NCBI GenBank assembly: GCA_000091205.1
Contig: AP006498.2
Source of the DNA: Cyanidioschyzon merolae
Taxonomy: Eukaryota
Strand: one strand, 5' to 3'
Length of the DNA stretch: 64,000 nucleotides
A model generated the notes under the pieces. It did not search any database, was not told the origin of the DNA, and worked only from the letters and a program-made list of their open reading frames with translations. Positions 11,790 through 60,600 of the stretch are shown here, one piece after another. Position 1 is the stretch's first letter. The number at the start of each line of letters is the position of its first letter. The position numbers and the translations under genes were made by a program.

Positions 11790-12385
11790 CAGAACGAGTA
11801 CCGTGCTTTCGGCGGGATCGCTTATAGTCGTTCCCCTCAATTGTGGTCCATCTCCTGGGGCGTGTCGCTGTACGCTTTTTCGCGGCTCATAGCAGACGCG
11901 TTCGAAGTATACTGATTTTTAAAAAAATCTGAGGAAAAGTTATGGATAAGGTAGTCGAAGGATGCTGGGGGCCCGTCATCGACGAGTTCGATAAAAACGA
12001 AAAATCTTTTCCTCGTCGAGAATGGAGCGAAGAAGAGCAAGTGACGAAGAAGAAGATGACGATGAGAGATAGACGAGAAAAGGTTTTTGCCCAATGGGTC
12101 GATGACGAGACTGCAGTGACATAGAGCGCGCGAGTTCTAGCAATCCTTGTACTGGTCAGTTCCACCCGCGGCAAGACACGCATGGAGTTCGTGAACCGAG
12201 ACTTTGACGCCGTTACTCATATACGGATATGAGCGGTGCAGGAGAAGAGGCCCGAGAAGCTGACGAGAGCCAACTTCGTGGGGGAACCTCTCAAAGTTGA
12301 ATTGTATGAGGAGAAGTTGAAGCCAGTAGTAGCTGGCCGGTCAAAAAAGTCTGGCAGGCGTCTGCAGCTAGGTAGGTAACAAGTT
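11790..12385 (+). mobile_element. ~0.6 kb non-autonomous Fanzor/TnpB-derived element (family-2 copy)
   Basis: Left end is homologous to the long-copy left ends (catagcc ... ttcatttga block). It then jumps to the zinc-finger/RuvC-III coding region (EKSFPRREWSEEEQ ... KTRMEFVNRDFDAV ... ANFVGEPLKVELYEEKLKPVVAGRSKKSGRRL, with in-frame stops). It ends with the conserved caggcgtctgcag tail. Confidence 0.55.
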
Positions 12386-27936: not shown

Positions 27937-28306
27937 CAAAAAAGCGTGGTACTTGCTTTCAAACAAAATCGTTCAGTGCCAGAACTTGGGGCAGAAGCTT
28001 TGGTCTATGGATAGATCGCTAGATCGGCTCGCTTCCGAAAAGACACTTTCTCACCCGGTTTGGTGCTAGACCTCTTGCCAGGTAGACGCGGTACGCTTGG
28101 AGGACGCGATAACGTCCCACAAGTGCAGCGCTTGCGCATGTTCTAGCGCGCACACCATGCAGACGGGCGGTCGTATAACCGCCCAGAATCGAACATACCG
28201 GACATCAGTAACGTTGCCGCGGTGCAAGCATCCCCACTGACCGGCTGGCCTGCAGCCGGCGATGATGCGCCAATTGAACGTGATCGCGCGTGTGCGGTTT
28301 ACCTGC

Positions 28307-28344
<38 letters not shown>
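28307..28344 (+). repeat. (CCAG)9.5 microsatellite
   Basis: ccagccagccagcc... read directly in an intergenic region. Confidence 0.9.
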
Positions 28345-28350
<6 letters not shown>

Positions 28351-29879
28351 ACTTTATTTCGATGACAAAACGTTTACATTGACCATGGATACCTGATTTC
28401 CGGGTGGGTGTTCGTAATCGAAAAGGCGTCCATCATGATGCACCCTATCTCCAAGCTCCGTTACGTATACTTCCTCTAGGATGTAATGGTCGTTTCGTAC
28501 GTTCAATCGTTCGTCAGGTGCCTGCCTTGCTGCACCCGCAATCGCAGCTATGCCGCTTGTGCAGATCCATCACGGAGGCAGAACGCCTTTGTCGCATCAC
28601 TGAGGGTGTCTTAACGAGGCGTGATTCATTCAACAAGGGGTCGGAGTACGTGATCATTCTGAGAGCCTGCATGCTGCGCAGACAGACCTTGTACCTGCGG
28701 CAGCGGGAAGCGACGTACTAGGAGTCCACTGCGACCAGGGCGATGCCCAGACACGCAGCATACCCGCTCCGAGCCCCAAAATAACCTGCGTTTCGGACGA
28801 GTTGCTCAGGTCTCGCTAAAGCACTCGCCAACGGGGGAGAGTACGACGAATTAGCCTACCAGACTTGTCCGGCGCGCAGGACCTTCCGCCAATAAGGTAA
28901 ACGTTCCACAGTATGAAAACCTTTTCCCTCTTTTACCGTTTATCGTAGTTGGGGAGAGAAACTGTCATCTCGTTGGCAATGACTCGTTTGTCTCTGCTCT
29001 TTGTTCCACGGCACTGATTTCGAACGGAATTGACAACAGCCGAAAGACACGGAGGGTCGCTGGAAAAAACATTGAAAGAAAACAAACCAGTCACAAACCA
29101 TTTATCACAGAACAACTATCTTGAAGCCGCACACACCACGCCCGCCTAAGAGGTCTAGTTTTTCCGGAGAAGCTCTAAAAATGGGTTAACGCGGGGTGTT
29201 CGGGCGATAGGAAGGAAGCCCACGACAAGGTCCTTGACCGCAATGCACGGAGGCGCGGAGGCAGTAGCACCAGAAAATATGGACGAGAGTTCTGAGCAGT
29301 CATCCGCCCCTCCCGAAACAACGCTGTAGGTTCGGGCACAAATACTGGATCAATCCTTGAATTCGGGCTCAGTTTAACCCTCTACCTTGGGTACCTACCT
29401 CAACTTTGGAAACAATCTCGGCGGATGCTTTGGAAGACGGCTGGCAGTATGTTCGCGATCGATGCTGGAACAAACGACTTGCCCGCCTATGTGTTTGGGG
29501 AGCGGATGCGAAGCCGCTGAAAAGGTGGTTTGCAGACTGTTCCCAGTGATTGAGGGGAGCTTCACGCGTCCGGCAAGATAAAGGTCGCATTCGAATCGAC
29601 CTTGACTAATGTACCTCTGATTCTATGCTAGCGCTGCGCCAAGCACTCAATGAACGACTGGAATGCGGGAGGCGCTGGTGGCATGTGCGTTCACACACCC
29701 CGTCGAGGGTACATCTAAATCGACAACGTATCTCTGGAGCACCGCAGCGTTACTCCTATTCCCTTGTGCGCTACGACTCTATAGGTTTCGCATCATGGAA
29801 TATTTGCGGGATAGCCTCGGAATTGAGCTACGAAATATCGAATTACCAGTAGAGTAAAGAGGAACTTATACAAGTGGAG

Positions 29880-32800
29880 GACTCTGCGTTAGGAAAAGAG
29901 ACCCAACCAGATGCGGAGAAGGAGGCAAAAAGTCCTCATGATCCACCTAGATGCAAAATAACCAGAGAAAGCAGCTCAGGAAAGAGCCCGAAGAAGAAGA
30001 AGACCAACAAGAAAAGACAGAAGAATAGAGAGAAGAACTCCTGAACGAGCCCATCATGAGTGATCCCCCGAAAGGGCACCCCAGCGGGAACTCAAGAGAG
30101 CCGTCGCCAAACCGAGTCACCTACTCACAGCGCTGACGATCCGAAAAGCCGTGCATGCAAATCTTTTGACCAATTGGCACGCGAGTATGTAGATGGGAAT
30201 CAGAAGATTGCCAGAGAACTGGGACTGCTTGCACCAGAACGCAACAGTAGCAAGCCGCAGTACCTCAAACGACTTACCAAAACTCGGATTGATGAATGCC
30301 ACCGACTCTATGAGATCGTCAACCGCACCGCCGTACGCGCCAACGCCGGAGACAAGGAAGCGAAGGCAGCGCTACCGGCGCTACAGGCGCAACATGAGGA
30401 CGCTATCGAAAGAACGAAAAAACGTTCCAGAGAAGACAAACGAGAGGATCGAAACCGCAAAATCGCCTCCCTAGCGAAATCTATGCTAGAGAGCACCAAC
30501 GAAGATGAGACCTGGCGCTCCATTCGATCGCGACTCGACCCACCAAAAAAGTGCTTGGGGCTCACACCAATTCTGTATAAGGAAGAGCTGAGGACGGAGA
30601 GTGCCTTAGTGAATGAGGCCTGGATAGACCACGGGACAGAGCTGCATGAAGACGCAACTGGGCACTGCCAAGACCCAATCTATTGGCACCAATATGCCGC
30701 AGAACTACCGCGCCTCGACCCGGTACCGGTATGGAACGACCCAATCTTCTGGCCTGAATCTGTCCGGACCCTCTTAAGGTCATGCAACCGCAAAACACCT
30801 GGCTTTAACGGTATCGCGGCGGAGTGGATGAAACTGGTGACCCCAAAAGACGGGACAACAGGGACACCGTCGATACCAGATGAACCTGACACAAGCTTAG
30901 GCAAACGCCTTGTGGAGCTCATCCAAGGCATGTTCGAAGAAGCGTACATCCCGGATGTATGGAGGACTGCCGAGGTCGTACCGATCCTCAAAAAGGACTC
31001 CCACATACACAGACATGAACAACTACCGGCCTATCGGCCTCATCCCGTCAATCATGAAGCTACTTTTGCGCCAACCTCACGAACCGGATCCAGAGGCGCC
31101 TCGAGGAACGCAAGTTCTTCGCCCCAGGGAGGGCTGGATTCCGGAGCCGCGAGGAGTGCATGAGCCATTTCCTGACCCTCACTGAAGTGGCGCAACGTCG
31201 CTTTATTCGTGACCGACAACCAACTTACGTATGCTTCATTGACTTCCAAAAGGCCTTTGACACGGTCCCGCACGAGGCTCCATTTCTGAAGATGGAACGA
31301 GCCGGAGTCTCCGGAAAGTGCTTGGCGTTCTTCAGTGCGCTCTATGCAGACTCGCGGATGCGCATCCGACTGGGCGACAGCTCAAGAACCCCTTCCAGAA
31401 GAATCCACCGTGGACTGCGACAGGGCGAGCGCGCATCCCCGCTCCTTTTCAACATCTTCATCAACGATCCGCTGAAAAACTGCAGACAATACGGGCTTGA
31501 GGTGCCGTGGATAGACTGTGGAGATGCCCGATGAGGAGCCCTCACATGGGAACCGCCTCGCAGGCCTTCTATTTGCGGACGATGTCGTGCTGTTGGCACC
31601 CGCCCCGGAAACACTTGCGGGTAGCATGGAACAAGTCAGCGACTGGGCCGATCGCTGGGAGATGAGCATAGGAGCATCGAAGTGCGGCGTCATGCTCATC
31701 CATGGAGACTCGCAGCGCATTCGCAATCGCTCGTGGCGGTTGCAGAATCAGGAAATTCCGATCGTGGAAAACTATCGCTACCTGGGGGTCGGTCTAACGC
31801 CGACGATCGACGAAAAGGCACACGTCGACGAGATGATCGCCAAGATGCATAGACGTACAGCGATCGCACGCCCATTCTTATCCGACCCCTCTATCTGCAT
31901 AGCAATCCGTACGAGGGCACGAAGGATGTGTATCATCCAGCCTGCGACCTGGGGTGCTGAATGGTGCGGCATAAAGCACCCAAATGCCTCACGTCTGCAG
32001 ACAGCCGCCAACAGGGCAATGCGACTCGTTGTTGTTGTTGGATGCTCAGTGCAGAGCAGAGCGACCAACCCGCTGACACTCGGACTTGAACTCCAAATAC
32101 CCTCAATAGAAGCGATAGCAGCAGGCTGCCGGGCACGCATACGGGCCAAAAGGGTCCACCAAGCGCACCCGGTTCAGTCGGATTTTCATGCAGACCCCAA
32201 CGCACCGCAAGAACACTTGGATGAAATCGACGCAGATTGGGCTGAAGCGCCTCTTAGACGAAAGCACGCTCCCTAATCGTTCCCCAGAAATGTAGCAGGC
32301 TCCCGTCGCCTCAAGCGAACCGTCCAAACAACAATATGGGAACGTAGACACGGAACAAGTCGTGCCAGTAACGCCGGCTTGACTCTCTACCGGAACTACA
32401 ACCTAGCATACACATGCAAGTACTGGTGGGAGGCGCTGGAGTTCCCGGGACTTGCTCGAGGTACCCAGTGGCTCGCGAAAATCCACGTTGGTGGCTTCTG
32501 GCGACCATCACCGGCTCTAAGCCGTATAGGAACACTGGAATCGCACTGTCCCTGCTATCGAGACGAGACCCCTCGAGACGCTGACATATTTAGGCTTACA
32601 GTGCCCGCGCTGGAAGCAGGAGCGCAGCGAGCTCCTTGGCGGACAGCAGCAGCTGGACATCACCGTGATAGCAAAAGGCCGGACACTCACTTTGAGTGCA
32701 GCACTGGCAACTGATGGTCCGCTAACGGAGCCTCAGCGCTCATTAGTGGCGAACAAACTCACATGCTACCTTCTAGGCGGAAGGTCCAGCGAATCGGATG

Positions 32801-32890
32801 CGCACACGGGCCCAGTGCGCTTTCTGCGCCTACCCACTGTGGTGAGCGTCAAGCACAAACCCACATTGCCAACCGACAACAACGCATTCC
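29880..32890 (+). mobile_element. degraded non-LTR (LINE-type) retrotransposon: reverse transcriptase with no recognisable APE endonuclease
   Basis: RT motifs are split over three frames: domain 0 TPGFNGIAAEWMKL; motif 1 NYRPIGLIPSIMKLL; motif 2 FIDFQKAFDTVPHE; motif 4 GLRQGERASPLLFNIF; motif 5 LLFADDVVLLAP (YxDD-type). A K/E-rich region precedes it and a Cys/His-containing tail follows. At least two frameshifts are present. Confidence 0.6.
30060..32276 (+). pseudogene. LINE reverse-transcriptase pseudogene (frameshifted ORF2-like)
   Basis: Tracks 30060-31163, 30910-31185, 31160-31534 and 31518-32276 together reconstruct one RT reading frame. Confidence 0.6.
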
Positions 32891-33480
32891 ATGCATGATC
32901 ACGAAGGAGAGAGGCGGCTCCCAGGATATATCCTAACAGTCAAGTTTCTCCAGCGTGTCGTGCAGCGAAGACAAGCCTGCATCCCCAGACTGTACGAGCA
33001 CAAACTGACGACGAGACCCGATTCTACGTCGGGTGAACCACACCTCGAGCCGATGCCCTCTGGGGTATAGAAAAGCAGTTCTAGCTCGATGAACTATCTG
33101 CTCCAGCATTTAAGGTGCAAAGGCGGATACGGAACGGCAGGTACGAGGCACACCCGATAGGACTTATGAAACGACCAGAATATCCGAGAAGAAGTATAGG
33201 TAATGGAACTTGGAAGTAGGCTGTTTGATGGATAATTCACCGCACATTGGAAAACACAAAAAAGTAAGAAAAGAAAAATGCGCATAGTCGGAGAACGCTG
33301 GCCAAAGGAAACGTTTTGTTAATGAAAAAAATGCCGCCGTTGAAGGAAAACGTGATCTTGATATCTAGCATGTAGCTCTAATGTAAAAGTTGTATTTTCG
33401 TTAACTTCATAGCCAAGTATAGTTTTCAGTTCATTTGAGTTTCAAACCTCAAACATGTGTATTCAATTGTTTTGTCGCAG

Positions 33481-33488
33481 TATATAAC
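33481..33488 (+). promoter_or_regulatory. candidate TATA box ~55 bp upstream of the Fanzor-like ATG (33542)
   Basis: gcagtatataacag. Conserved in copy C (tgtgtataacag) but mutated in copy B (cagtatcgaacag). Confidence 0.25.
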
Positions 33489-33541
33489 AGAAGCGTTCCA
33501 GGAGCTTTCTTTTTCAAAAAAAAAACTAAAAAAGGAAAGTT

Positions 33542-35755
33542 ATGAAAAAGCAAGTCGACGATCCTGGAGGCCGAGGGTCGCCGGCTGCCAGAAAAAAAAC
33601 AAAAAACAGTGCCAAGTCCAGAAGAAAAGGAAAAGAAGAAGGACCAAAGGGGGAAGGGGGGAGACTCTACGTCGAAGGATGCAAGAAAGACGAATGTACG
33701 ACGAGATGGTGGTGAAAACCTTTCTTCATGGCCATATCAAGGATCCCTACAGGGAAAAGTTGCAAGACGCTATCAGAAACCGTGTCGACTCGTACTCCAA
33801 GAGTATTGTCAAGGCGTCGTCAGGACTGATGCATTTGGTACGGGAGATGTATCGCGACGTGACGCACATGGAAACGGTGGAGATTCCGGACGAGTTTTTC
33901 GATAAGAAGTTTATTCGTCAGCTGATGCTTGGTACAGAGGAAGCGCGGAGGGAAAATGTATGAGTGCATGCCCTCCACGAAAAACATCCCTTTTACAGCT
34001 TCAACGGTACTCGATACAAGGGTGACCGGGATATTTACAGCTATGGGGCGATGAAGTACCTCACGAATCTGAAGAATCCTTTGACAGTGAACCTCGAACG
34101 TTTCATGATACGCGCCGTGTTTGCACTCGATCCCGGGCATCTCTCCCAAAGGGATATGGGCGATTACCAATGGCATCACGAACAATCGCCGGCGTGTAGA
34201 TGGGATCGAATTTGTCGACAAGAAGGCGTCAAAAGAGATCACGAATGAAGCTTCTGTTATCCGTGCGGCTATACAAGTGCACCGTGCAGTTTTGGGGCTG
34301 GCGAATCCGACAGACAAGATATCAGAGTTGAAAAAAGATAAGGAAAGATACGATCGTCTCGTCCTACGGTATTTTGTGTTTTTGGACCGAGAGCTCGATC
34401 GCAAAGCGGAGATGAAGCTGAGCGAGGAAAAAAATGAAGAATGGGAGAGACGGAAGGCGTTCCTAATGGGCGAGCGCTTCAACGTGGTTCCGTTGGGCAA
34501 CATCAAGTCACATTTTGTGACTATCGACTCCGGCGTCCTTTACGGCATCATGACTGAGACCAGTCCCGAGTTCGATGTAAGGAGCACAGAGATCACCGCC
34601 GAAACCCGCGAGACGTACTGGAAGAATATCTTCAATTTCAAAGGGCTCAAAGTCAGCAAGAAAAAGGAATTCACTGGGTTGATCGAAAGCGATGGAGTAG
34701 CCATGTGTGTACACTATCTGCGGTTGTTGAAAGATCGTCCAGTTCTGCCCTCGGCTTCGCGCTCGGCGAAACATGAAGAAAACAAACAAGCGGATCCTGC
34801 GACGCAGAAAGTGCAGGAAAACGACTTTGTCGTTGGCGCGGACCCCGGAAACACAAATATCATATCCATCGCTGTATCCAAGCTTGCGGACGATGGTTCT
34901 GACGGTAACTTGCGTCAGAAACACATGCGTCTTCTGAGGTTCTCGAGCGCAAGAGACTAAAGAGAATCCGGAATAATGAATGTGCGGAAGAAAATTGAGA
35001 CATGGAATGCAGGAATAAAGGACCACTTGGAAGCTATGAGCGAGGTGACGAGCCGAGGAGCGGGCTTTCAAGCTTTTCTGAAATTCATGAAAGTTCGCGT
35101 TGCTCATTGGGAGGCGCTGTGGGAGGAGTATACAAAGCCTCGGTGGGCTCGTCTGCGTATGAATCTATACTGTGGGAAGCAGCGGGCGTTCGCGAACTTT
35201 TTCAATCAGTTGAGCGCCCTGAAGGTGGATGTGAGTCAGAGGCTCGTCGTAGCATACGGAGCAGGGCGCTGGAAGACCCAAAAAGGGTGTACACCAGCTC
35301 CAACGACGAGAGCGCACAAGGAGTGTGCACGGCGTTTCGTAACGATACCTGTAGATGAGTTTCGAACATCGTATACACACCACGAGCTGGATTGTACACT
35401 TCAGAGGGTCGAGATGGAAAAGTGCCAGAGGAGCCCTGAAGATATAATAAAGTATGGACCGCTGACGGAGGAGCAAATGGAAAGGAGGGCAAAAGTTCGG
35501 CGACTACTTGCATTAGTAAGTACAACCAATCATGGCAAGAAACGTATGGAATTCGTGAATCGTGACTTTGATGCCGCCATCAATATCAGGAAATGTGCGG
35601 TACTGGAGACGAGAGCTCCAGAGTGGACAAGAGAGAACTTTAATGGACAACCTCTCAAAGTCGAACTATATAAGAAAAAATTGAAACTAGTAGTAGGTGG
35701 ACGTTCCAAACAAACTAGGAGGCGTCTGCACGTCAGTTGGAGACGATTTGTCTAA
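33542..35755 (+). pseudogene. Fanzor/TnpB-like nuclease gene of copy A, disrupted
   Basis: Homopolymer frameshift after MKKQVDDPGG. In-frame TGA at ~33961. A +1 frame change inside 34121-34248 shared with copies B and C. In-frame TAA at 34958 shared with copy C. The 3' part (34976-35755) is intact. Confidence 0.7.
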
Positions 35756-35870
35756 GGCGCGTTTGCCGCCACTACGGTACACTGCTGGCAGCAACGTTTT
35801 TCATTTGAAAAACGTTTGGCGGCGAGCTGCTCATTTCCCACGGGCAGACACCTAAAGCGGGTCATCTGGT

Positions 35871-45568: not shown

Positions 45569-46904
45569 TGCACGAGGACATTGTGCCGTGGGGTGATACC
45601 TGGGGGAAACCGCGGGGCGACCCAAAAAATGGGCAGGTATAGACTCGCAATTCATACTGAGTGCACAGGGTCCAGAACCGCGCGAACAAGTGTGTCTCGG
45701 GGAAGCACGCTCGGTAGATGTACAGCGCCAAGCCATTCCACAGTTTTTGCCGAATAATCAGGAAGTTTCTCTGAATGTTTGCGTAGGTCGGCAGCCTTCA
45801 TGCGAGGTTGTGACTATCGCCGCTATGGAACGTGGACGTAAAGGCGGGATGCAGCACAACACAATGCTTATTCTCTGTATCGACACCGGTTTCGGACCAA
45901 AATGGAATGCTAGCAGCTCGCTCGGCTCCTTTTCTTTGATTTTCTCGAACTCGATTTCAGGTGTACAACCCCGGTAATCCAAGTACAGCAATAGAGACCT
46001 ATGTTTTCGAATTTAGAACTAGGATTCTCGGTCTTGTTTTCAGAGTGGCTCTTTCGATGCCTTGGGGCTGGAATTCGTCTCGCCATTAGCATCAATATCG
46101 TGCGCGACGCTTCCGACAGAGTGTTCGTCGCGGAACCGATACCATCATGCGATTCATATGTACGAGCTTGCACTCTTGTCAGTTCCGTAGGTGCGGCACG
46201 CTAAAATCATGCATTCGTCTGGTTCTCGATCGTTCTATTTCATGGCAACTCGTGGGCGCAGCAACCTCCGCGCCTGGATTGACGAGGAATCAAGTCGGCA
46301 TCGTCCTGTGACGACTGCTTCATCAGCTCATCCCAAGGTCCCATTGAAATTGTCACGTCAAAGAAGCGCTTCTTGCGGAGAGTGTACCACTGCTTTGCTC
46401 GAAGGTTGCGTAGTGGTATCGGATTCCATCGGCTCGGGCTCCAGCCATGGTTCTCCTGCCAGTACCTGTTTCATCACGGAAAACATCACGTTCCACGATC
46501 CCTTATCGATTGGAACTGTGCGCTTGCAGCAGACAGCGTACTCGCCCACAGGATCGTGCAGAAGAAGCACGATATCCCAGGGTACGGCAATGTGCGGAGA
46601 AAAGCAGGGCATTGACGGGAGTTTTCTGTGCGCATCGAGCGCATGCACAGAGCGATGGAGCGCGTCCTCTCGTGCTACAGGGCGGTGCCCGAGATGCAGT
46701 GGACAACATGGCAACTCCTGACAACAGCCAAGCGGTACCGCCGCGAAGGACGCACCGAGTCTGTGTACGAAGAAGATGAAAACGTCAAGAAAAATGTTGA
46801 TCAAAAATGTCCTCTGAGCACACAGTGCGTCAATATTGCCAAGATAATGTTTCGGGACCATAGGCTGTATAGATATTCAGCCACACACGGGCGCCCCTCA
46901 GTCT

Positions 46905-47430
46905 TTTTCGACCGGCCTCCTGCTATCGGTTTCATTTTCTCCCTGCACATTTCGAGTCTGAGAGGTTGTCCAACTAAGCTAGATCACTCGGCTCAGCTCC
47001 TGGGGTCTCGTCTTCTGCACCACACATCCTTTGATATTGATGGTGGCGTTGAAGTCTCGGTACGCGAGCCCCATGCGTTTCCTGCCTCTGGTTGAACTCA
47101 TCAACGCAGGGATTCCCCGAACGCGTGCACTCTTTGTCACTACAGTCTCGTCATCGCCTCGTCGGGCAAACACTTGCTCTCGCTTCTCTCATCTCTTCTT
47201 CTTCGTTCGATGGTCGACGAGCAGAGGGTTTTTCTGATTTTTGTCGAGCCCGGCGAAACCGGGCGATCCAGCATCCCCAGCTGCCATTTCCATACCTTTT
47301 CCTTGGGTTTTTTATTTCTTTGAATCAACGCACTTGGAGCACATCTGCTATAAACCGCGAGAAAGCATTTGATGAGACACTCCCGGGCGTGGAACACACC
47401 TGAGGGAAAAACTGAACGCATCGTACGGGG
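46905..47430 (-). mobile_element. ~0.55 kb non-autonomous Fanzor/TnpB-derived element (family-2 copy)
   Basis: Minus-strand ORF 46979-47173 encodes KRMGLAYRDFNATINIKGCVVQKTRPQE (RuvC-III). Nucleotides 46905-47050 align with the 3' ends of copies B and C (ctgagaggttgtccaac ... cacatcct-tgatattgatgg). The left-end block at 47330-47430 aligns with the 60.5 kb and 11.8 kb copies. Confidence 0.55.
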
Positions 47431-49046: not shown

Positions 49047-49243
49047 TGCTGGCACCGAACACCGTTCGCAGTCGGACGATGCCGACCGTGTACAGTAGTG
49101 GCGGCAACCGCGCCCTAGACGAAACGTCTCTAACTGACGTGCAGACGCCGCCCTGCCGTTTTCGACCGGCCACCTACTACTGCTTCCACCTTCTTCTCAT
49201 ATAGTTCGACTTTGAGAGGTTGTCCAACAAAGTTTTCTCTTGT

Positions 49244-51300
49244 CTAGTCTGGAGGTCTCGTCTCCAGCACCGCACATCTCCTGATATTGATGGCGGCATT
49301 AAAGTCTCGGTTCACAAATTCCATACGTTTCTTTCCATCATTGTTCGTACTTACTAATGCGAGTAGTCCACGAACTTTCGCCATCCTTTCCATTTGCTCT
49401 TCCGTCAGCGGTCCATACTTTATTATATCTTCAGGGCTCCTCTGGCACTTGTCCATCTCCACTCTCTGAAGTGTACACCCCAGTTCATGGTGTGCATAGG
49501 ACGATCGGAACTCGTCTACAGGTATCGTAACGAAACGTCTTGCGCACTCCTTGTATACCCTCGTCGTTGGAGCTGGAGTAGTGCCTTTCTTGGGCGCCCA
49601 ACGCCCTGCCCCATACGCTACTACGAGCCTCTGACTTTCATCCTCCTTCAGGGCGCTCAACTGATTGAAAAAGTTCGCGAACGCCCGCTGCTTCCCGCAA
49701 TACAAATTCATTCGCAAACGAGCCCACCGGGGCTTGCTGTACTCTTCCCACAGCGCATCCCAATGGGCGATGCGAACTTCCATGAATGTCCGAAAAGCTC
49801 CAAAGTCCGCTCCTCGGCTAGTCACCTCGCTCAAAGCTTCTAGGTGCTCCTTCATTCCTGAATTCCAAGTCTCGATTTTCTTCCTCGCATTCCTCATTCC
49901 CGATTCTCGATAGTATCTCGCTCTGGAGAACCTCAAAGGACGCATGTCTTTCTGACGCAAGTTACCATCAATGCCATCTTCCGCAAGCTTGGATACAGCG
50001 ATGGATATGATATTTGTGTTTCCGGGGTCCGCACGAACGACAAAGTCGTTATCCTGCACTTCCTGTGTGGCAGGATCCGCCTTCTTCCCATCTTCATGCT
50101 TCGTCGAGGACGGAACTGGACGATCTGTCTTCAAGCGCCTTTAGTGTACACACATGGGTATTCCATCGGTTTCGTCTGAAAGTGAGCAACTTTTGCTTGC
50201 TCACTTTCAGACGTTTGTAATCGAAGATATTCTTCCATTACGTCTGGCGGGTTTCGCCGGAGAACTCTTCCCTGCGAAGATCGAACGCCGGACTGATCTC
50301 AGTCATGATGCCGTAAAGGACGCCGGAGTCGATAGTCACAAAATGTGACTTGATGTTGCCCAACGGAACCACGTTGAAGCGCTTGCCCATTAGGAACGCC
50401 TTCCGTCTCTCCCATTCCTCATTTTTTCCTCACTCAGCTTCATCTCCGCTTTGCGTTCGAGCTCTCGGTCCAAAAACACAAAATACCGTAGGACGAGACG
50501 ATCGTATCTTCCCTTATTTTTTTCAAATCTGATATCTTGTCTGTCGGATTCGCCAGCCCCAAAACTGCACGGTGCACTTGTATAGCCGCACGGATTACAG
50601 AAGCTTCATTCGTGATCTCTTTTGACGCCTTCTTGTCGACGAATTCGATCCCATCTACACGCCGGCGATTGTTCGTGATGCCATTGATAATCGCCCATAT
50701 CCCTTTGGGAGAGATGCCCGGGATAGAGCGCAAATACGGCTCTTATTATGAAACCTTCGAGGTTCACTGTCAAAGGATTCTTCAGATTCGTGAGGTACTT
50801 CATCGCCCCGTAGCTGTAAATATCCCGGTCACCCTTGTATCGAGTACCGCTGAAGCTGTAAAAGGGATGTTTTTCGTGGAGGGCATCCACTAGCACATTT
50901 TCCCTCCGCGCTTCCGCTGTGCCAAGCATCAGGTGTCGAATAAAGGTCTTGCCGAAAAACTCGTCCGGAATCTCCACCGTTTGCATGTGCGTCACGTCGC
51001 GATACATCTCCCGTACCAAATGCATCAGTCCTGACGACGCCTTGACAATACTCTTGGAGTACGAGTCGACGCGGTTTCTGATAGCGTCTCGCAACTTTTC
51101 CCTGTAGGGATCCTTGATATGGCCAAGAAGAAAGGTTTTCACAACCATCTCGTCGTACATTCGTCTTTCTTGCCGCCTTCGACGTAGAGCCTCCACCTTT
51201 CAGTCCTTCTTCTCTTCCTTTTCTTCTGGACTCGGCACAGTTTTTTGTTTTTTTTCTGGCAGCCGGCGACACTGGGCCTCCGGGATCGTCGACTTTTTTT
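49244..51300 (-). pseudogene. Fanzor/TnpB-like nuclease gene of copy B, disrupted
   Basis: The start codon is lost (ctataaaaaaagtcgacg versus ttATGaaaaagcaagtcgacg in copy A). There are several frameshifts in the 5' half. The 3' half (296-aa ORF 49244-50134) has RuvC-I to RuvC-III intact and reads through the position where A and C carry TAA. Confidence 0.7.
50173..50213. repeat. perfect 17-bp inverted repeat with a 7-nt spacer, private to copy B
   Basis: cgtctgaaagtgagcaa-cttttgc-ttgctcactttcagacg. Copies A and C carry a non-palindromic sequence at the same place. Confidence 0.8.
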
Positions 51301-52032
51301 ATAGCTTTCCTTTTTTTTTGGAAAAGAACACTCTTTGGACGCGTCTGTTCGATACTGCGAAAAAAAACTCGACTAGACTTGTTTGAGGGTTGAAACAAAA
51401 ACGAACTGAAAGACTATACTTGCCTATGAAGTTCACGAAAATACAACTTTTACACGAGAGCTAGACGCTAAGGATCACGATTACGTTTCCCTTCAACGGT
51501 GGCATACGCGTCGTGTCTCATGACTGCCCGATCCCCCAGATGCGCTCATCGAGCGCGATGCATGCGCTGCGCGAGACGCCTCACCGATCCATGAAGGACA
51601 CGTGTCCGACACCCCGTCTTGGCACATGCGTGTTCGCATCGCACTGCAGCCAAAATAACGTATCGTAGATCGGAAACGCACGTAGAATGAACTCTTGCTA
51701 TAGGTTCTGTCGCTGGCGCCGACGCTACTGCCCATCGCAGTACCGCCCTGACATACAAGGGGATGCAGGGGCCTGGCACGATACCCCTCGACGCTTCTAT
51801 CAAAAGCGTAGCGTTCTCTGCGGCTTACCGTTGTGTGGTTAAGGTATGCATCACTCTTCTCAATAGGATTTTCGTTAGTTTTATTGATCATAAACAAACA
51901 AGGTACGGTAGGATTCCTGAACACGGATACAGGTTTATTTCCTCTGCTTGTTATGTATGCTGCACGGTCGCTGGAACAGTGTCCGATTGTATGGGTGCTG
52001 CGTATCGAGGCTTGTCGCGCGCTCCAAGCACG

Positions 52033-54414
52033 CTACCACAGTGCGCATACTTTCCGCGGGTGCATGGCGGAGCCGCTGCGGCAACGAAACGCTTCAGCAA
52101 ACTCGGGAAACTGACTCAGAATCCCATTCACTCGGTAGCGATTGGGCGCGTGCACGTCCACCACGAGTCCTTCCATGGCATATTTGGGAGTTTCGTTCTC
52201 ACACCAGGTCTGGGCGAAGGCGACGAAATAGAGCTGCTCGGGTGTCCAGTCTGGCCGGATTCTGCGGGTGAGGTTCCATTCCCGGTGTCGGGCTGCCTCT
52301 GTTAGGTGTTCTTTGACGAGTCGATTATAGGCCGCGTACGCAGTCTTCATGCCTGTGAGATCCGCGAGATTCTCTTGCAGCGTTAAACGTCCGTTGACTG
52401 GTCGTCCATTCACTCGAAAGTGGTCGTAAAGATTTGTCATACATTTGGCCCTACGGTCGTATTCTTGGACGGCTTGAGGGCTCATCCAGTTCGAAAGACG
52501 ACCGTGCGCGTCGTAATGACGTCCGCCTGAGTCGAAGGCATGACCAAGTTCATGACCAATGACGTTCCCAAGTGCACCATAATTCACGGCCTCTGGGTAC
52601 AGCGCCGAATAAAAATTTGGAGCGAAATTCGCCGCTGGGATGTTCATGGAATTCGAGAGCGGGTCGTAGTATGCGTTCACGGTGATTGGGGTCATGTCCC
52701 AGAGACTTGGGTTCCGCGGGCCGCCAATCTGTTTCAAGATCGCATCGTTGCGGAACTGCCGACAGAGAAACACGTCGCCCAGCAAATCAGAGCCGTTGAG
52801 GTGCAGCGTATCGTAGTCCGGCCAGCGATCCGGGTAGCCGATGTTGTTCTGAACCAGACGCAGTTTCTCTAGAGCGGCCCGAAGTGAGCTCCTGCCCAGC
52901 CAGGCTCCATCGTCGCGCTTGAGGATCACCGCAAACTCTTCCTCGATGCTTCGGATTAGCTCTACTGCTTTTCCACGAAGCTCTGGAGAGAAGAAGCGCT
53001 GCACGTAGAGGCGACCAAGATCGTCCCCGATATGCGCATCCGCAAGGGCGAGACACTGACTCGATAGATTCGCAAGTCCCCGTCTACCTTCAACAATCTG
53101 ACCGAAAAAGCGAAAGTGCTCCGCCGCAAGCGACGAGTTGCCGGCTGCTCCCGCCATGGCGTTCAGCACGTGCCAGCGCAAGTACAGAGAGAGTTTTCTG
53201 GTCTCGTTCGAGATAGAGCTCAGTGCGACCATATCACTCAAGCGTTTCAAGAACGGGGGCCATTGCACCACCAATGGAATCGCAGAAGCGTTTTTTCCCG
53301 TTCCTGCAAGGAGGCTCTCAAGATAGTTCGTCCATGGGATCGCCGGGGCCATCTCGTGCTGCAGTGCGGTCAAGTTTGTGGGATTGTAGACGGCCCAGGC
53401 ATCGTCGCCAAGGTCTGCTTCTGCTTCTGAAGCCTTGGCCAACTCAGTTTCCCATTCGACAATGTTCGCTGCTGCCTGCATCGCTTCTGCTTGATCAGTG
53501 CCGCTCAGCGTGAGCATGCGACCTATGTGATTCGAATACTCATCAAGAATATCCTTATAGTATTCATCGAGATAGTAGTCACGCGTTGGCAACCCTAGCC
53601 CTCCTTGTTCAATGGTCAGCACCATTACCTCTGGGTGCATGCCATCCGGCAGCACCTCGTACGAAAAGAACGGTCGTGGGAGATTCCCTCCTGGATCGAC
53701 GACGCTGCGATGCATTTCGCCTAGAATCGCAAATAGCTCTGTGGGATCAGCGATTGTCTCTAACTGCGACAATATGCGTCCAAACCCAGATGCGTTCAAA
53801 AGTTCCGAGCTTGCATCATTTGCCAGTCCGTCTTCTCCGCTGCGCTCGATATCCGCTGCGCTCGGTTGTCCGGCCGCAAAGCACGCGTCAAAAAAGTCGA
53901 CCACACGCTGCTCGCTCGCCGTGCGAGAAACTGCCCGCCCACTGCGCAACGCCTGCACCATGGGCAGCAACGCGTCGCTGCAGCGCTCCTCCATGAGATC
54001 CGAGGTGCCCCACCGTGCTTCATTTGGCGGGATGGGTTGGCTGCGCAGGAAACCTCCGCACGCATAGGCGTAAAAGTCCTCACAGGGGTCTTCCTGCGGG
54101 TTTATAAACGCCCTTATCTCTCTCAGTACGCGGTCCTGGGTCTCGTTCGTCCCCTGGGTGCCGCCTGCACCACCAGGACCAGCGTAGCTCTTATTTCCAC
54201 TTTCTCGAGAGTATGAAATAAATAGAAGCAAGAGAAGCGCCGTCCCTATCGCCACCAGCACCAAAGTGCGACGAACGCGACGCCCGCGCTCTGTCACAGC
54301 TTGTCTCGCGACAGCGGACATATTAGCTCCATCAGAACCAACATCTCGAGATCCTGCTTCTTGATCTAGAGTACCGCGACCAAAGAGCGGTGATCTCTCT
54401 GACGGAACGCTCAT
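52033..54414 (-). CDS. M13 zinc metallopeptidase (neprilysin/endothelin-converting-enzyme family), type II membrane protein
   Basis: Signal-anchor RRTLVLVAIGTALLLLLFISY. Motifs NAYY, VIGHELGHAFD (HExxH), ENLADLTG (ExxxD) and C-terminal CENETPKYAMEGLVVDVHAPNRYRVNG. Start set at ATG 54414. The listed first 38 codons start at TTG and overlap the right end of copy C. Confidence 0.85.
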   Translation of the reverse strand: MSVPSERSPLFGRGTLDQEAGSRDVGSDGANMSAVARQAVTERGRRVRRTLVLVAIGTALLLLLFISYSRESGNKSYAGPGGAGGTQGTNETQDRVLREIRAFINPQEDPCEDFYAYACGGFLRSQPIPPNEARWGTSDLMEERCSDALLPMVQALRSGRAVSRTASEQRVVDFFDACFAAGQPSAADIERSGEDGLANDASSELLNASGFGRILSQLETIADPTELFAILGEMHRSVVDPGGNLPRPFFSYEVLPDGMHPEVMVLTIEQGGLGLPTRDYYLDEYYKDILDEYSNHIGRMLTLSGTDQAEAMQAAANIVEWETELAKASEAEADLGDDAWAVYNPTNLTALQHEMAPAIPWTNYLESLLAGTGKNASAIPLVVQWPPFLKRLSDMVALSSISNETRKLSLYLRWHVLNAMAGAAGNSSLAAEHFRFFGQIVEGRRGLANLSSQCLALADAHIGDDLGRLYVQRFFSPELRGKAVELIRSIEEEFAVILKRDDGAWLGRSSLRAALEKLRLVQNNIGYPDRWPDYDTLHLNGSDLLGDVFLCRQFRNDAILKQIGGPRNPSLWDMTPITVNAYYDPLSNSMNIPAANFAPNFYSALYPEAVNYGALGNVIGHELGHAFDSGGRHYDAHGRLSNWMSPQAVQEYDRRAKCMTNLYDHFRVNGRPVNGRLTLQENLADLTGMKTAYAAYNRLVKEHLTEAARHREWNLTRRIRPDWTPEQLYFVAFAQTWCENETPKYAMEGLVVDVHAPNRYRVNGILSQFPEFAEAFRCRSGSAMHPRKVCALW

Positions 54415-54449
54415 GACACTCTGGAAACCTCGTTCGCCACGGTAGCACC

Positions 54450-56950
54450 GCCACAGCCGTTCTAAGTCGGACGACGCCGACGGTATCCCGTAGTGGCGGC
54501 AAACGCGCCTTAGACAAATCGTCTCCAACTGACGTGCAGACGCGTCCCCGTCTTTTTCGACCGGCCACCCACTACTGCTTCTAACTTTTTCTTATATAGT
54601 TCGACTTTGAGAGGTTGTCCAACAAAGTTCTCTCTTGTCCACTCTGGAGGTCTCGTCTCCAGCACTGCACATCTCCTGATATTGATGGCGGCATCAAAGT
54701 CACGATTCACGAATTCCATACGTTTCTTGCCATCACTGGGTGTACTTACTAATGCAAGTAGTCCACGAACTTTTGCCCTCCTTTCCATTTGCTCCTCCGT
54801 AAGCGGTCCATACTTTATTATATCTTCAGGGCTCCTCTGGCACTTTTCCATCTCCACTCTCTGAAGTGTACAACCCAGCTCGTGGTGTGTATACGATGTT
54901 CGAAACTCATCTACAGGTATCGTAACGAAACGCCGTGCACACTCCTTGTGCGCTCTCGTCGTTGGAGCTGGTGTACACCCTTTTTGGGTCTTCCAGCGCC
55001 CTGCTCCGTATGCTACGACGAGCCTCTGACTTTCATCCTCCTTCAGGGCGTTCAACTGATTGAAAAAGTTCGCGAACGCCCGCTGTTTCCCACAGTATAG
55101 ATTCATACGCAGACGAGCCCACCGAGGCTTTGTATACTCCTCCCACAGCGCCTCCCAATGAGCAACGCGAACTTTCATGAATTTCAGAAAAGCTTGAAAG
55201 CCCGCTCCTCGGCTCGTCACCTCGCTCATAGCTTCCAAGTGGTCCTTTATTCCTGCATTCCATGTCTCAATTTTCTTCCGCACATTCATTATTCCGGATT
55301 CTCTTTAGTCTCTTGCGCTCGAGAACCTCAGAAGACGCATGTGTTTCTGACGCAAGTTACCGTCAGTACCATCGTCCGCAAGCTTGGATACAGCGATGGA
55401 TATGATATTTGTGTTTCCGGGGTCCGCGCGAACGACAAAGTCGTTTTCCTGCATTTTCTGCGTCGCAGGATCCGCTTGTTTGTTTCCTTCATGTTTCGCC
55501 GAGCGCGAAGCCGAGGGCGGAACTGGACGATCTTTCAACAACCGCAGATAGTGTACACACATGGCTACTCCATCGCTTTCGATCAACCCAGTGAATTCGT
55601 TTTTCTTGCTGACTTTGAGCCCTTTGAAATTGAAGATATTCTTCCAGTACGTCTCGCGGGTTTCGGCGGTGATCTCTGTGCTCCTTACATCGAACTCGGG
55701 ACTGGTCTCAGTCATGATGCCGTAAAGGACGCCGGAGTCGATAGTCACAAAATGTGACTTGATGTTGCCCAACGGAACCACGTTGAAGCGCTCGCCCATT
55801 AGGAACGCCTTCCGTCTCTCCCATTCTTCATTTTTTTCCTCACTCAGCTTCATCTCCGCTTTGCGATCGAGCTCTCGGTCCAAAAACACAAAATACCGTA
55901 GGACGAGACGATCGTATCTTTCCTTATCTTTTTTCAACTCTGATATCTTTTCTGTCGGATTCGCCAGCCCCGAAACTGCACGGTGCTCTTGCATAGCCGC
56001 ACGGATTACAGAAGCTGCATTCGTGATCTCTTTTGACGCCTTCTTGTCGACAAATTCGATCCCATCTACACGCCGGCGATTGTTCGTGATGCCGTTGGTA
56101 ATCGCCCATATCCCTTTGGGAGAGATGCCCGGGATAGAGTGCAAATGCGGCGCGTATCATGAAACGTTCGAGGTTCGTTGTCAAACGATTCTCCAGATTC
56201 GTGAGTCACTTCATCGCCCCATAGTCGTAAATATCCCGGTCATCCCTGTACTGGGTACCCTCGAAGCGGAATTCCGCGAAGTTTTCGTGGAGGGCATGCA
56301 CCCGCTCATTTTCCATCCGCGCTTCCTCTGTACCAAGCATCAGCTGACGAATAAACTTCTTATCGAAAAACTCGTCCGGAATCTCCACCGTTTGCATGTG
56401 CGTCACGTCGCGATACATCTCCCGTACCAAATGCATCAGTCCTGACGACGCCTTGACAATACTCTTGGAGTACGAGTCGACGCGGTTTCTGATAGCGTCT
56501 CGCAACTTTTCCCTGTAGGGATCCTTGATATGGCCATGAAGAAAGGTTTTCACCACCATCTCGTCGTACATTCGTCTTTCTTGCATCCTTCGACGTAGAG
56601 TCTCCCCCCCTTCCCCTTTGGTCCTTCTTCTTTTCCTTTTCTTCTGGACTTGGCACTGTTTTTTGTTTTTTCTGGCAGCCGGCGACACTGGGCCTCCAGG
56701 ATCGTGGACTTGCTTTTTCATCACTTTCCTTTTTTTGTTTGTTTTTGAAAAACAACGCTCTTTGATCCCTTCTGTTATACACAGCAAAAAATCAATCGAG
56801 CATTTTTGCTTGAGGTTTGAAACACAAATGAACTGAAAACTGTACTTTGCTACGACCTCAACGCAAACACAACTTTTACAGCTGAACAAGACGCTTCTGA
56901 TCGCGATTGCGTCTCCCTTCAACGGCGACGGGCGCTTCGTGTCTAATGCC
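54450..56950 (-). mobile_element. Fanzor/TnpB-like transposon, copy C (~2.5 kb)
   Basis: Collinear with copy A end to end. It shares the left-end block (cattagacacgaagcg ... ccgttgaagggagacg) with copy B and the right end (ggcgcgtttgccgccactacgg ... gtcggcgtcgtccgacttagaacgg) with A and B. Confidence 0.8.
54510..56721 (-). pseudogene. Fanzor/TnpB-like nuclease gene of copy C, disrupted
   Basis: Intact N-terminus MKKQVHDPGG ... KKRKRRRTK ... MQERRMYDEMVV. Private TGA at ~56206. The same +1 frame change and TAA as copy A. Intact 259-aa RuvC-II/ZnF/RuvC-III segment (54510-55289). Confidence 0.7.
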
Positions 56951-57809
56951 TGCCAGACAAGGATGTGCGCGTATCGGGCGCACTCTATAGAACAAAGAAC
57001 AGATACTGACCATTAAATCGCCACGAGATAACGATTTCTTTCCCCTCTGCGATAAACGTTGAGACGGGGAAAACTGTCGGTACTTTCGAAAGTTTACCTT
57101 CTAGACGCAAGGTCCCGCGGATTGCACGAGTCTCCCAGGCTCGTGCTTCACGCTCCGCCACTGGCAGGTGCTTTCGTGACATCTGAGCAACTCGTCCGTA
57201 ACGCACTCCACTCTGGGACTTGGAACGGGTAGCCGGCGTCTGGGCGTTGCCCATGATGCAGTGGGCTCCTGGTATATCGCGTTGCGCTGCCGCAGGCACT
57301 AGCTCAGTCTGCGCAGCTTGCAGACTCCTAGAACGACTATGAGCCACGACTCCGTTTCAGGTGAAGCGTTCCTCGGTCCGACGCCCTCGGAGGTATGGCA
57401 AAGCCGTTCAGTCTCCGTGATGCATCGGCATCAGCGATATAACCGCAATTGCGGGTGCTCAAAGCAGGTAATCGGCGCTCGATAGAGCATAAGAATCGAC
57501 CATTACATCCGAAATGATTTATGGGTCATCTAACTTGAGGGTAAGTGCATCATGATGGATGCTTTCCCGAAACCCAACATCCATCCATCCATCCATTCTG
57601 CAATCTGGGATCCATGGTCCACGAAAACGTTTTGTCACTGTAAAAAAATCAGCGCTGCCGCCGTTGCAGAGCGCCTCCAAGTTTCGCCAAAAACTCGTTG
57701 CCAAACGAGCGCTGCTATTGTTCTAGTTTACCGCTGTTGTCGTTGTTGTTGCCGTTGCTGGTAAGATTTCGTTAGGGCGCTGGTGCCTCAAGTTGGCGCC
57801 AACCAGGGC

Positions 57810-59087
57810 ATGTCACTGGGGTCGGCTGGTCGCCCGGACAGCAGAGAGAAAGTGTCTCAGATTGAAGGAAGCGCTATTCTTTTAGTAGGTGCGCGTGGTG
57901 CAGGGAAACGAACCATTCGCTCGATTCTGCTCGGAGCTCCAAGCGCTTCAGCAGTAGATAGCCCCGTCCAGTCAGGTCAGCTGAGCTCGCTCAGACTCTT
58001 CGGGTCGGTTGTGCTTTGCCTCCTGGACTTGGAGCTTCCAATAAGCGTCGAGACTGCGTCACAGCTGCGGGGATTCCTTCGAACCGGCAGGGTACTCTCG
58101 CTGGTCTTCATTGTCGATGTCAGTTCGAGCGAGGGAGCCAGCGCCGACAGGAACTGGATACGGGCGGTGACGGAGCTTACGGTTGCAAAGAACTTGCCCG
58201 CACTGCAGCGATACATCATTCTACACAAAACCGACATGCTGCCAGACGGGTCGGCCGCTGCGCAGCTGCGTCGGCAAGCGCGAGTCTGCTGTGAGGCCGG
58301 CTATCTCGACTCGAGTCGCTGCTTCAGGACGTCCATCTGGGACTCGTCTCTTTACCACGCATGGTCGACCATTGCTCGTTCGCTGGTACCGGACATTGCA
58401 CAAGTCCAGGAGGCGCTGCAAGCGCTCAGCCGGGACCCGTCTGTGCGCCGTATCGTGCTCTTGGAGAGCACCTCTCTGCTCGTGCTCGGGTACGCAGGGG
58501 CGCCTCTGTACGGACGACCATCGCTAGAGACGGAACCGAAAGCGGCTTCATCACCTGTGAGTCGATGGCTTGCCTGGTTCGGTTCAAGTGAGACCCTTCC
58601 TCGTGGGCAGCCTCAGGCTGGGTCAGAGCGTCCTGCCGAGGAACTCGCTGACCCTACCCAGAGCACGAAGCAGCGCAGTCGTTGGCCCTGGCGGAAACTG
58701 GAACGCTGGTCTAGCGCACCGCTACTGGACCGCTCGGAACTCGTGGCGATCTCTGAGCCGTTTCGACTCAAGGATGCCGAGGCGTTCGAAAAAATGAGCC
58801 TCATCCTCAAGCGCCTAAAACTCGCATGTATGCGCACAGGGACCATGTTTCAGATGCTTCGCGTGCGGAAGCAGCACGGTGATGCGCTCCTTGAGGCGTT
58901 TACCCCACATACGTTGATTTTGGTGCATCTTCGCGCGTCGGAAAATAGAGAACAGGAGCAGAAGCGCATTCTTTCTGCGATGCGGGAAACCTTGAAACCA
59001 GCGTATCGTAGTATTGCAAAATTAGAGCACACTGCAGAGGATGTTCCGTGGAGTCTTTCGGACAGTTCCAGAATCGGTGCTTTCTGA
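57810..59087 (+). CDS. RagA/Gtr1-family small GTPase
   Basis: Degenerate P-loop ILLVGARGAGKRT. The RagA/Gtr1 signature CFRTSIWDSSLYHAWSTIARSLVPDIAQVQEAL matches [25 protein letters not shown] of RagA. The C-terminal roadblock-like half is extended. Start set at the first ATG (MSLGSAG); the track starts at GTG 57783. Confidence 0.55.
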   Translation: MSLGSAGRPDSREKVSQIEGSAILLVGARGAGKRTIRSILLGAPSASAVDSPVQSGQLSSLRLFGSVVLCLLDLELPISVETASQLRGFLRTGRVLSLVFIVDVSSSEGASADRNWIRAVTELTVAKNLPALQRYIILHKTDMLPDGSAAAQLRRQARVCCEAGYLDSSRCFRTSIWDSSLYHAWSTIARSLVPDIAQVQEALQALSRDPSVRRIVLLESTSLLVLGYAGAPLYGRPSLETEPKAASSPVSRWLAWFGSSETLPRGQPQAGSERPAEELADPTQSTKQRSRWPWRKLERWSSAPLLDRSELVAISEPFRLKDAEAFEKMSLILKRLKLACMRTGTMFQMLRVRKQHGDALLEAFTPHTLILVHLRASENREQEQKRILSAMRETLKPAYRSIAKLEHTAEDVPWSLSDSSRIGAF

Positions 59088-60024: not shown

Positions 60025-60600
60025 GGCCTTTTTTTGACCGAACCCTCTGATATCCGTTTGGGGTTTTCCCTGCAGACTTCGAGCTTGGGAAGCCACCCAG
60101 CGAATTTAGAGGGTGTCAGGTCCTCAGTCCTCGTCTTTAGCACCACAGATCGTGTGATATTGACTGCACCGTGAAAGTCTGGGGTTCACGAACTCTATGA
60201 GTCTATTGCATCTAAATGAACTCACGTTTGCAGGGATTCCCCTATCTTTTGCACTCTATGACACTAGAGTCTCGTCATTGCCACGTTTGGCAAACATCTG
60301 TTCTCGTCGCTCGTCGGTCTCCCGTTTCCCACTTCTTCTTCTGCTTCGTCAATAGCGCTATATCCCTCTGTTCTCGACGAGACGAGGATTTTTATCGTTT
60401 CTTTTTCAAGCACCCGGCAATGGTAGTCATCCAAGATGTCTGACTTGCATGTCTATACCTTTCCCTTTGATTTTTTATTTCTTCAAATGAATGCACTTTG
60501 AATACATCGGCTATGAGCCGTGGAAAAGCATATGGTGACATGCATCTGGCGTGGAACGCAATTGAGTTGAAATACGATAATCACCCGTGCGTGCATGCAG
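60025..60600 (-). mobile_element. ~0.57 kb non-autonomous Fanzor/TnpB-derived element (family-2 copy)
   Basis: Reverse complement of 60100-60200 encodes EFVNPDFHGAVNITRSVVLKTRTEDLTP (RuvC-III region). Nucleotides 60230-60590 are collinear with 47090-47430 of the 47 kb copy, including the left-end block. Confidence 0.55.

Follow-up and report, generated by a model that had tools for sequence, protein, structure and literature searches.

Within a 64,000-nt stretch of contig AP006498.2 of the red alga Cyanidioschyzon merolae (GenBank assembly GCA_000091205.1; hereafter the window), a gene for an M13 metallopeptidase lies between two long repeats, copies B and C. We conclude with high confidence that B and C represent two distinct insertions, old and no longer mobile, of the transposon family CMe-1A, which carries a gene of the Fanzor1 class (TnpB-like, RNA-guided nucleases); one lies on each side of the M13 gene. 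A preliminary description, made from the letters alone, had placed both repeats on the minus strand, bracketing the M13 gene (52033–54414) at ~90% identity over 2.4 kb. Self-blastn and the Pfam domains of the enclosed gene bore out this layout, but the identity was lower, at 86.5% over 2521 alignment columns (2.5 kb; 49052–51528 versus 54445–56954, same strand). In a repeat search of the window, the pieces of B and C were colinear at 88–97% identity; the pair is genuine and far above chance. A third copy, A (33331–35782, plus strand), was found inverted relative to B and C, with 94.9% identity to C and 87.7% to B over ~2.5 kb by self-blastn. The arrangement is real but ordinary, and the Fanzor1 family of C. 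merolae is already known; what is added here is new but incremental, namely the exact limits of the elements, a second 5′ module, the variants of a terminal hairpin and the empty orthologous sites.

The family was identified through its protein. The consensus translation of A, B and C gave a protein of ~690 amino acids (aa) with VNRDFNAAINI and further blocks resembling the three RuvC blocks of TnpB. These blocks, including VNRDF(N/D)AAINI, are readable in all three copies and in their homologs as D...E...D in TnpB/Fanzor contexts. The sense strand of the repeat copies is rich in purines, and their G+C content is below that of the surroundings. A database search returned 64 relatives, nearly all from hot-spring metagenomes, with intact proteins of 676–702 aa at 40–42% identity, and some of the Fanzor relatives carry the tag Pfam DUF8286. 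Pfam and NCBIfam scans of the open reading frame (ORF) fragments and of the full consensus assigned no family, and a single-sequence phmmer search of the consensus against PDB gave no match; the family was recognized only through a profile search and a fold search. A profile built from 17 homologs (hmmsearch against PDB) matched the entries from Parasitella (9cf0, E=2.8e-14), Spizellomyces (8gkh, 3.9e-11) and Guillardia (9cer, 1.8e-3), with the blocks idPGr, dEfRtS and nRDlNaAlNI aligned to blocks of PpFz and SpuFz. The fold evidence comes from an AlphaFold model of an intact homolog, P0043, which is 42% identical to the window consensus over 94% of that consensus (predicted local distance difference test score 84.8, predicted template modelling (TM) score 0.78). 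Foldseek ranked the SpuFz, PpFz and GtFz chains at the top (E ~1e-15 to 1e-17, TM 0.54–0.72; for SpuFz, E=2.9e-17 and TM 0.64–0.72), followed by Cas12 and TnpB.

The published description of CMe-1A in C. merolae gives an element of ~3 kb that encodes Fanzor1 and is present in ~150 copies, each ~80% identical to the consensus; it has no terminal inverted repeats, its target-site duplications were left undetermined and its 5′ 635 bp are identical to TE-N2_CMe, a short repeat (Bao and Jurka 2013, Mob DNA 4:12, PMC3627910). Judged by that description, rather than by the Repbase consensus, A, B and C belong to CMe-1A. They share with it the genome, the ~3-kb size, the Fanzor1 protein, the many diverged copies, the lack of terminal inverted repeats and of a recognizable target-site duplication, and a 5′ part of ~635–660 bp that occurs on its own as a short repeat as well; as far as the paper describes the family, there is no difference in kind. 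The second, unrelated 5′ module (that of copy B), the 5′ hairpin, the two-variant 3′ hairpin and the empty sites are without mention in the part of the CMe-1A description available to us.

The limits of the elements were set by comparing the window copies with 80 metagenome loci, 46 distinct insertions among them; in all, the hot-spring metagenomes held 250 matching stretches with 46 distinct 3′ flanks, and the window holds three copies. The enclosed host gene (BAM81861, ‘probable endothelin converting enzyme-1’; minus strand, first ATG at 54414, stop codon at 52033–52035) exactly matches a C. merolae 10D protein and carries the Pfam domains Peptidase_M13_N and Peptidase_M13. On one side lies the host gene MetAP2 (BAM81860; 47628–49046, plus strand; Pfam Peptidase_M24, exact protein match), convergent with copy B. 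The accessions of MetAP2 and M13 are consecutive, so copy B carries no annotated gene. The Fanzor1 core of B covers 49047–51560 on the minus strand, as defined by self-blastn, a three-way alignment of A, B and C and a comparison of its 3′ end with 54 paralog ends. Upstream of it on the same strand is a non-coding 5′ module (51561–51976 by boundary alignment; 475 bp), found only in a subset of paralogous Fanzor copies and 77–88% identical to the regions upstream of the cores at four metagenome loci (L039, L027, L078 and L011). A 143-aa ORF within this module is broken in the paralogs and not conserved, and so is not a gene. The whole B element thus runs over ~49047–51976, with its 5′ end 57 nt from the M13 stop codon. 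Its 3′ end, defined by the hairpin, lies 1–5 nt from the MetAP2 stop codon, and homology with C begins 6 nt past that stop; the distance of ~17 bp given earlier was too long.

On the other side of M13, the core of C covers 54445–56987 on the minus strand by self-blastn, the three-way alignment and paralog ends, and its 3′ end is 30 nt upstream of the M13 ATG. The adjacency reported earlier therefore holds, but not the distance of ~40 bp, and of the 38 initial codons of the longest peptidase ORF that had been assigned to the element ~28 lie inside it. Directly at the 5′ end of the C core begins a TE-N2-like 660-bp element (56988–57654, minus strand), 67–69% identical to solo copies at 28344–29006 and 7001–7639; together they form a composite of ~3.2 kb (54445–57654), the ‘CMe-1A’ composite, whose 5′ end is ~155 nt from the first ATG of a Gtr1/RagA-like GTPase gene (57810–59087, plus strand; Pfam Gtr1_RagA), a host gene divergent from M13 and syntenic in a relative, L091. 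The 5′ limits of 51528 and 56950 first drawn for B and C were thus set too short, the elements extending to ~51976 and ~57654. With B and C longer at their 5′ sides, the intergenic DNA is more fully repeat than first thought: B makes up ~98% of the 2986-bp MetAP2–M13 interval and C ~95% of the 3395-bp M13–RagA interval, so that ~6 kb of repeat in total fills 95–98% of the two intergenic regions beside M13. The core of A (33331–35824, plus strand) lies in the inverted orientation; it is a pseudogene that has kept a class-2 terminal hairpin, is preceded by an inverted fragment of the same TE-N2-like short element and ends 47 nt upstream of the ATG of a TACC-like gene, whose protein exactly matches BAM81858 of C. 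merolae 10D. The exact matches of the MetAP2, M13 and TACC-like proteins identify the window as strain 10D.

Across the family the core measures ~2.5 kb and consists of a small 5′ hairpin, an A-rich leader, a Fanzor1 gene of ~690 codons and ~100 nt of 3′ non-coding sequence ending in a hairpin of ~50 nt. The 5′ hairpin, which marks the start of the core, lies ~55 nt upstream of the start of the A/B/C alignment. Downstream of the stop codon come a GGCG...CGCC stem, the motif CCACTACTGTACAC and the terminal hairpin, where homology ends. This hairpin exists in two variants that fold alike, CGTCGTTCGA-CTT-TCGAACGGCG, with extended G-U-rich arms, and AACGTTTTTC-TTTT-GAAAGACGTT. Its z-score is -5 to -6 in well-kept paralogs, and the sense strand is more stable than the antisense strand (mean -22.5 versus -18.2 kcal/mol), G-U pairs being responsible.

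All three copies in the window are pseudogenes: the catalytic motifs can still be read, but encoding of the protein is impossible. In the three-way alignment, every copy has the same frame-shifting 1-nt insertion in a CCCGGGC run. A and C additionally agree in two stop codons (near 34960 and 55305). Copy B has nine in-frame stops (tblastn of the family consensus, 51160–49118) and several 1-nt deletions in the three-way alignment; copy C has one frameshift and two stops in the region aligned to the consensus. The terminal hairpin has decayed in B (~49047–49095) and in C, with z-scores of -3.3 for A, -0.9 for B and -1.3 for C.

Presence or absence of the repeat-flanked interval among populations, named earlier as a check, was read from ten environmental contigs (L001–L010; 95.7–99.8% identical) that run into or through the elements beside MetAP2 or M13. 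The elements are present in every covering C. merolae-like contig (10/10), and M13 is in place in the seven that carry it (7/7), five of which reach both elements and two (L004 and L007) one; copy B is fully spanned by two of the ten. Orthologous loci were also compared. In two more distant relatives, L091 and L092 (~70–76% nucleotide identity across coding regions), the genes follow the order RagA, M13, MetAP2, ..., TACC, 14-3-3 as here, and no Fanzor homology was found at the corresponding sites. Their M13–MetAP2 spacers of 583 and 585 nt are unique sequence, the RagA–M13 spacer of the relative is 1683 nt, and the spacer from TACC to 14-3-3 measures 880 nt in L091 versus 7.9 kb here. The element-free syntenic loci in the relatives, combined with the presence of the elements in all sampled contigs, indicate that the insertions took place after the split from these relatives and before the C. 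merolae-like populations diversified. In the window only ~61 nt of the MetAP2–M13 spacer lie outside the element; either most of the ancestral spacer disappeared during or following the insertion, or this lineage had a short spacer to begin with.

Direct repeats around a gene can also arise in other ways. Copies B and C have the same orientation, are 5.4 kb apart and contain matching pieces at nearly constant spacing, as would be expected if one block, an element with its neighbouring DNA, had undergone tandem or segmental duplication. We regard this as very improbable: C resembles A, a distant and inverted copy, far more (94.9%) than it resembles B (86.5%), the 5′ modules of B and C differ, homology stops at the element ends with no match outside them, and M13 is single-copy and lies between RagA and MetAP2 in the repeat-free relatives. 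B and C are therefore independent insertions of different subtypes and not a duplication. Equally, the bracketing of M13 by direct repeats could suggest a composite transposon or a unit resembling a long terminal repeat (LTR) element with the peptidase gene as cargo, the more so as the best database matches of the gene outside close relatives are bacterial M13 peptidases at 33–35% identity. This origin is, if anything, even less credible than duplication. The two relatives have M13 at the same place between RagA and MetAP2 with no flanking element, which means that the gene was there before the elements; the repeats are full transposons of different subtypes and not LTRs; and neither a second genomic copy of the B–M13–C unit nor an outgroup without M13 at the locus was seen. 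Readings as a tandem duplication, an LTR pair or a composite transposon were rejected on the closeness of A and C, the differing 5′ modules and the element-free synteny, which leaves independent insertion of B and C beside a resident gene. As for the gene itself, matches to the M13 peptidase comprised Cyanidioschyzon-like relatives at 69–72% and, beyond these, bacterial M13 proteins at 29–35%, mostly 31–35% (Acidobacteria and others); among the 120 matches listed, no eukaryotic M13 homolog appeared outside the Cyanidioschyzon-like relatives. The bacterial best matches may stem from the composition of the database, or the gene may be of bacterial origin.

A further question is what the insertions did to the host genes. 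From their geometry, the 3′ regions of MetAP2 and M13 and the region upstream of M13 probably lie in element DNA, and effects on the host transcripts are plausible. The earlier suggestion that the insertions replaced the MetAP2 3′ region and the M13 upstream region fits in part, in that the insertions abut both genes and the relatives have an element-free spacer of 583–585 nt; as regards transcripts it stays at the level of plausibility. One could go further and suppose that the element ends were co-opted, the 3′ ends of C and A as promoter or 5′ untranslated region (UTR) of the downstream gene and the 3′ end of B as the MetAP2 terminator, with the copies kept by selection. Only 30 nt separate C from the M13 ATG and 47 nt separate A from the TACC-like ATG, each element pointing the same way as its gene; no more than 5 nt lie between B and the MetAP2 stop codon; the copies are kept in all sampled populations; the native 585-nt spacer is gone; and among 22 paralogous insertions beside an ORF of at least 400 aa, the ORF lies within 181 nt of the element 3′ end in 19, the usual distance to a long ORF being at most ~100–180 nt. 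We nevertheless consider co-option unlikely. The case is one of geometry, which a compact genome yields by default, given element-free spacers of 0–200 nt; the orientation of the 19 insertions with an ORF within ~180 nt is not significantly skewed (12 same, 7 opposite); and the 3′ ends of B and C are decaying rather than conserved. Targeting of gene starts by the element 3′ end was also considered and set aside, element-free spacers in the window being equally short.

The copies have also exchanged sequence. Similarity among them is a mosaic: C is the odd one out at 33331–33560 and 33950–34315, B through most of 34320–35400 and A in the last 150 nt. Such a pattern marks gene conversion among the copies, with others from the rest of the genome also involved. 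Between A and C, which lie 18.7 kb apart in inverted orientation, two tracts of 280 and 242 nt are perfectly identical. These tracts fall within 34424–35178 and 55087–55841, a region that is 99–100% identical, whereas the flanking parts reach only 77–90%. This region points to recent gene conversion, and the A/C pair is a possible substrate for inversion. The longest perfectly identical block between B and C, 173 nt on the minus strand (50953–51125 in B, 56364–56536 in C), offers these two copies their best substrate for recombination. Crossing over of B with C would delete M13, and crossing over of A with C would invert 18.7 kb. Ectopic recombination between the direct repeats, as proposed earlier, is possible given the identical block and the mosaic exchange, but no deletion, duplication or rearranged allele was seen in the ten environmental contigs, which are short-read assemblies and poor at showing one. 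L008 and L012 belong to one contig, the only one that spans C to A; its order is that of the window. Ectopic recombination between Ty/delta elements in yeast and between Alu elements in human offers a parallel, with two direct copies, the 173-nt identical block, a single flanked gene and past gene conversion in common; the overall divergence of B and C, 13.5%, usually suppresses crossovers, and the ten contigs lack a deletion or duplication allele.

For the origin of the arrangement we propose the following sequence of events. One element entered the short spacer where the 3′ ends of M13 and MetAP2 face each other; the other entered the spacer separating M13 from the divergent RagA-like gene. 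By analogy with characterized Fanzor and TnpB systems, transcription of the element's 3′ end would yield an omega RNA, with the guide read from the adjacent flank; the omega RNA would direct the nuclease to the element-free version of the site, which would be cut; and repair of the break would copy the element into the site again. In the window this system is dead: A, B and C carry frameshifts and stops, and the terminal hairpin is lost from B and C. The copies still exchange sequence by gene conversion, and recombination could in principle delete M13. A broader proposal holds that the Fanzor1 family is a eukaryotic counterpart of the IS200/IS605 design (a hairpin at each end, neither inverted repeats nor a target duplication), that the ~50-nt G-U-rich 3′ hairpin is the guide-adjacent stem of the omega RNA, that guides derive from host gene ends, the elements lying right beside host start and stop codons, and that element ends rather than host DNA serve as promoters and terminators of their neighbours; taken as a whole, we hold it to be quite unlikely.

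The closest characterized systems set the scale of these analogies. The Fanzor1 proteins SpuFz1 (PDB 8GKH), PpFz and GtFz (PDB 9CF0 and 9CER) share with this family the whole-protein fold and the RuvC motif blocks, and in each case the gene lies inside a multi-copy mobile element. The present family has a conserved non-coding 3′ end at the place from which those systems produce omega RNA. It differs from them in its low sequence identity, only 12–16%, and in that the window copies are pseudogenes; the SpuFz1 locus, moreover, has terminal inverted repeats and the C. merolae family has none. IS200/IS605 elements with TnpB resemble it in the TnpB-type nuclease, the absence of terminal inverted repeats and of a target-site duplication, and hairpins near both ends. 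The guide RNA would be expected from the right end there and likewise here, but this family encodes a eukaryotic Fanzor1-type protein, in which the helical region at the N terminus is large.

Several observations weigh against our reading of these elements. The window holds no intact copy, and the nuclease and guide-RNA roles would be assigned from homology to the Fanzor1 systems of other species. Neither a transposase nor terminal inverted repeats nor a target-site duplication came to light for the element: alignments of the element ends contain no terminal inverted repeat, inspection by eye of the ends of B and of the metagenome locus L039 revealed no target-site duplication, and no TnpA-like gene turned up in the elements or is reported for the family in the available part of its description, no search aimed at Y1 transposases having been made. 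Nor is any RNA structure supported beyond the terminal hairpin. With fixed windows and mononucleotide shuffles, only ~1/3 of the terminal hairpins reach z < -3; RNAalifold found next to no consensus in the final 316 nt of 46 copies; and the two small stems around the stop codon showed no covariation beyond shuffles. Those stems and the GGCG...CGCC stem pair in ~80% of cells, again with covariation not exceeding that of shuffles. The conservation profile along 24 full-length copies is flat, the 3′ end not being specially conserved. Finally, element-free spacers in the window also measure 0–200 nt, and the short ORF distances may reflect a compact genome only. Rfam and tRNA scans of the whole window gave no match.

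These elements matter mainly for annotation: ~9 kb of the window without an annotated gene is Fanzor1 transposon debris. MetAP2, the M13 peptidase and the TACC-like gene each have an element copy within 50 nt of the coding sequence, which is relevant at these C. merolae loci for the mapping of promoters and UTRs and for the design of homologous-recombination constructs. The family may also suit the question of how Fanzor1 elements without a transposase spread, offering many dated copies, empty orthologous sites and a host with very efficient homologous recombination.

The 5′ ends of the cores and the surroundings of the copies contain further repeats. Among the loci L011–L090, many Fanzor cores have a TE-N2-like element, in one orientation or the other, directly against their 5′ hairpin end; in further cores the 5′ module is unrelated and is again a repeat. 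It looks as if other sequences preferentially land at, or join, the 5′ end of the core. Copy A lies within a nest of repeats (28344–33330) that begins with the solo TE-N2-like copy at 28344–29006, at whose 5′ end directly stands a (CCAG)n microsatellite (~28300–28345). An A-rich stretch near A contains ORFs at 30060–31163 and 31518–32276, the latter with a weak match to a reverse transcriptase domain (RVT_1, E=6e-6, below the Pfam cut-off), and the inverted TE-N2 fragment beside A occupies 32758–33320. Three short repeats (12045–12370, 46890–47210 and 60130–60538) are mutually 73–78% identical and in part homologous to the Fanzor C-terminal coding region, starting at the RDFNAAINI block and finishing shortly ahead of the stop. 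The terminal hairpin is missing from them, they have a common upstream part of their own, and one is located ~420 nt upstream of MetAP2. These repeats may be remnants of a Fanzor subfamily that has diverged further, or members of a short derivative family. Within the Fanzor gene, a 68–75-nt unit in the linker before the first RuvC motif, encoding approximately VVDA-KHEE-K-A---TQKVQDND, varies in number (50036–50103 in copy B, 4469–4611 in L007 and 4943–5235 in L008): the window copies have one such unit, and the orthologous copy B of environmental strains and the proteins P0001, P0007 and P0012 have three to four.

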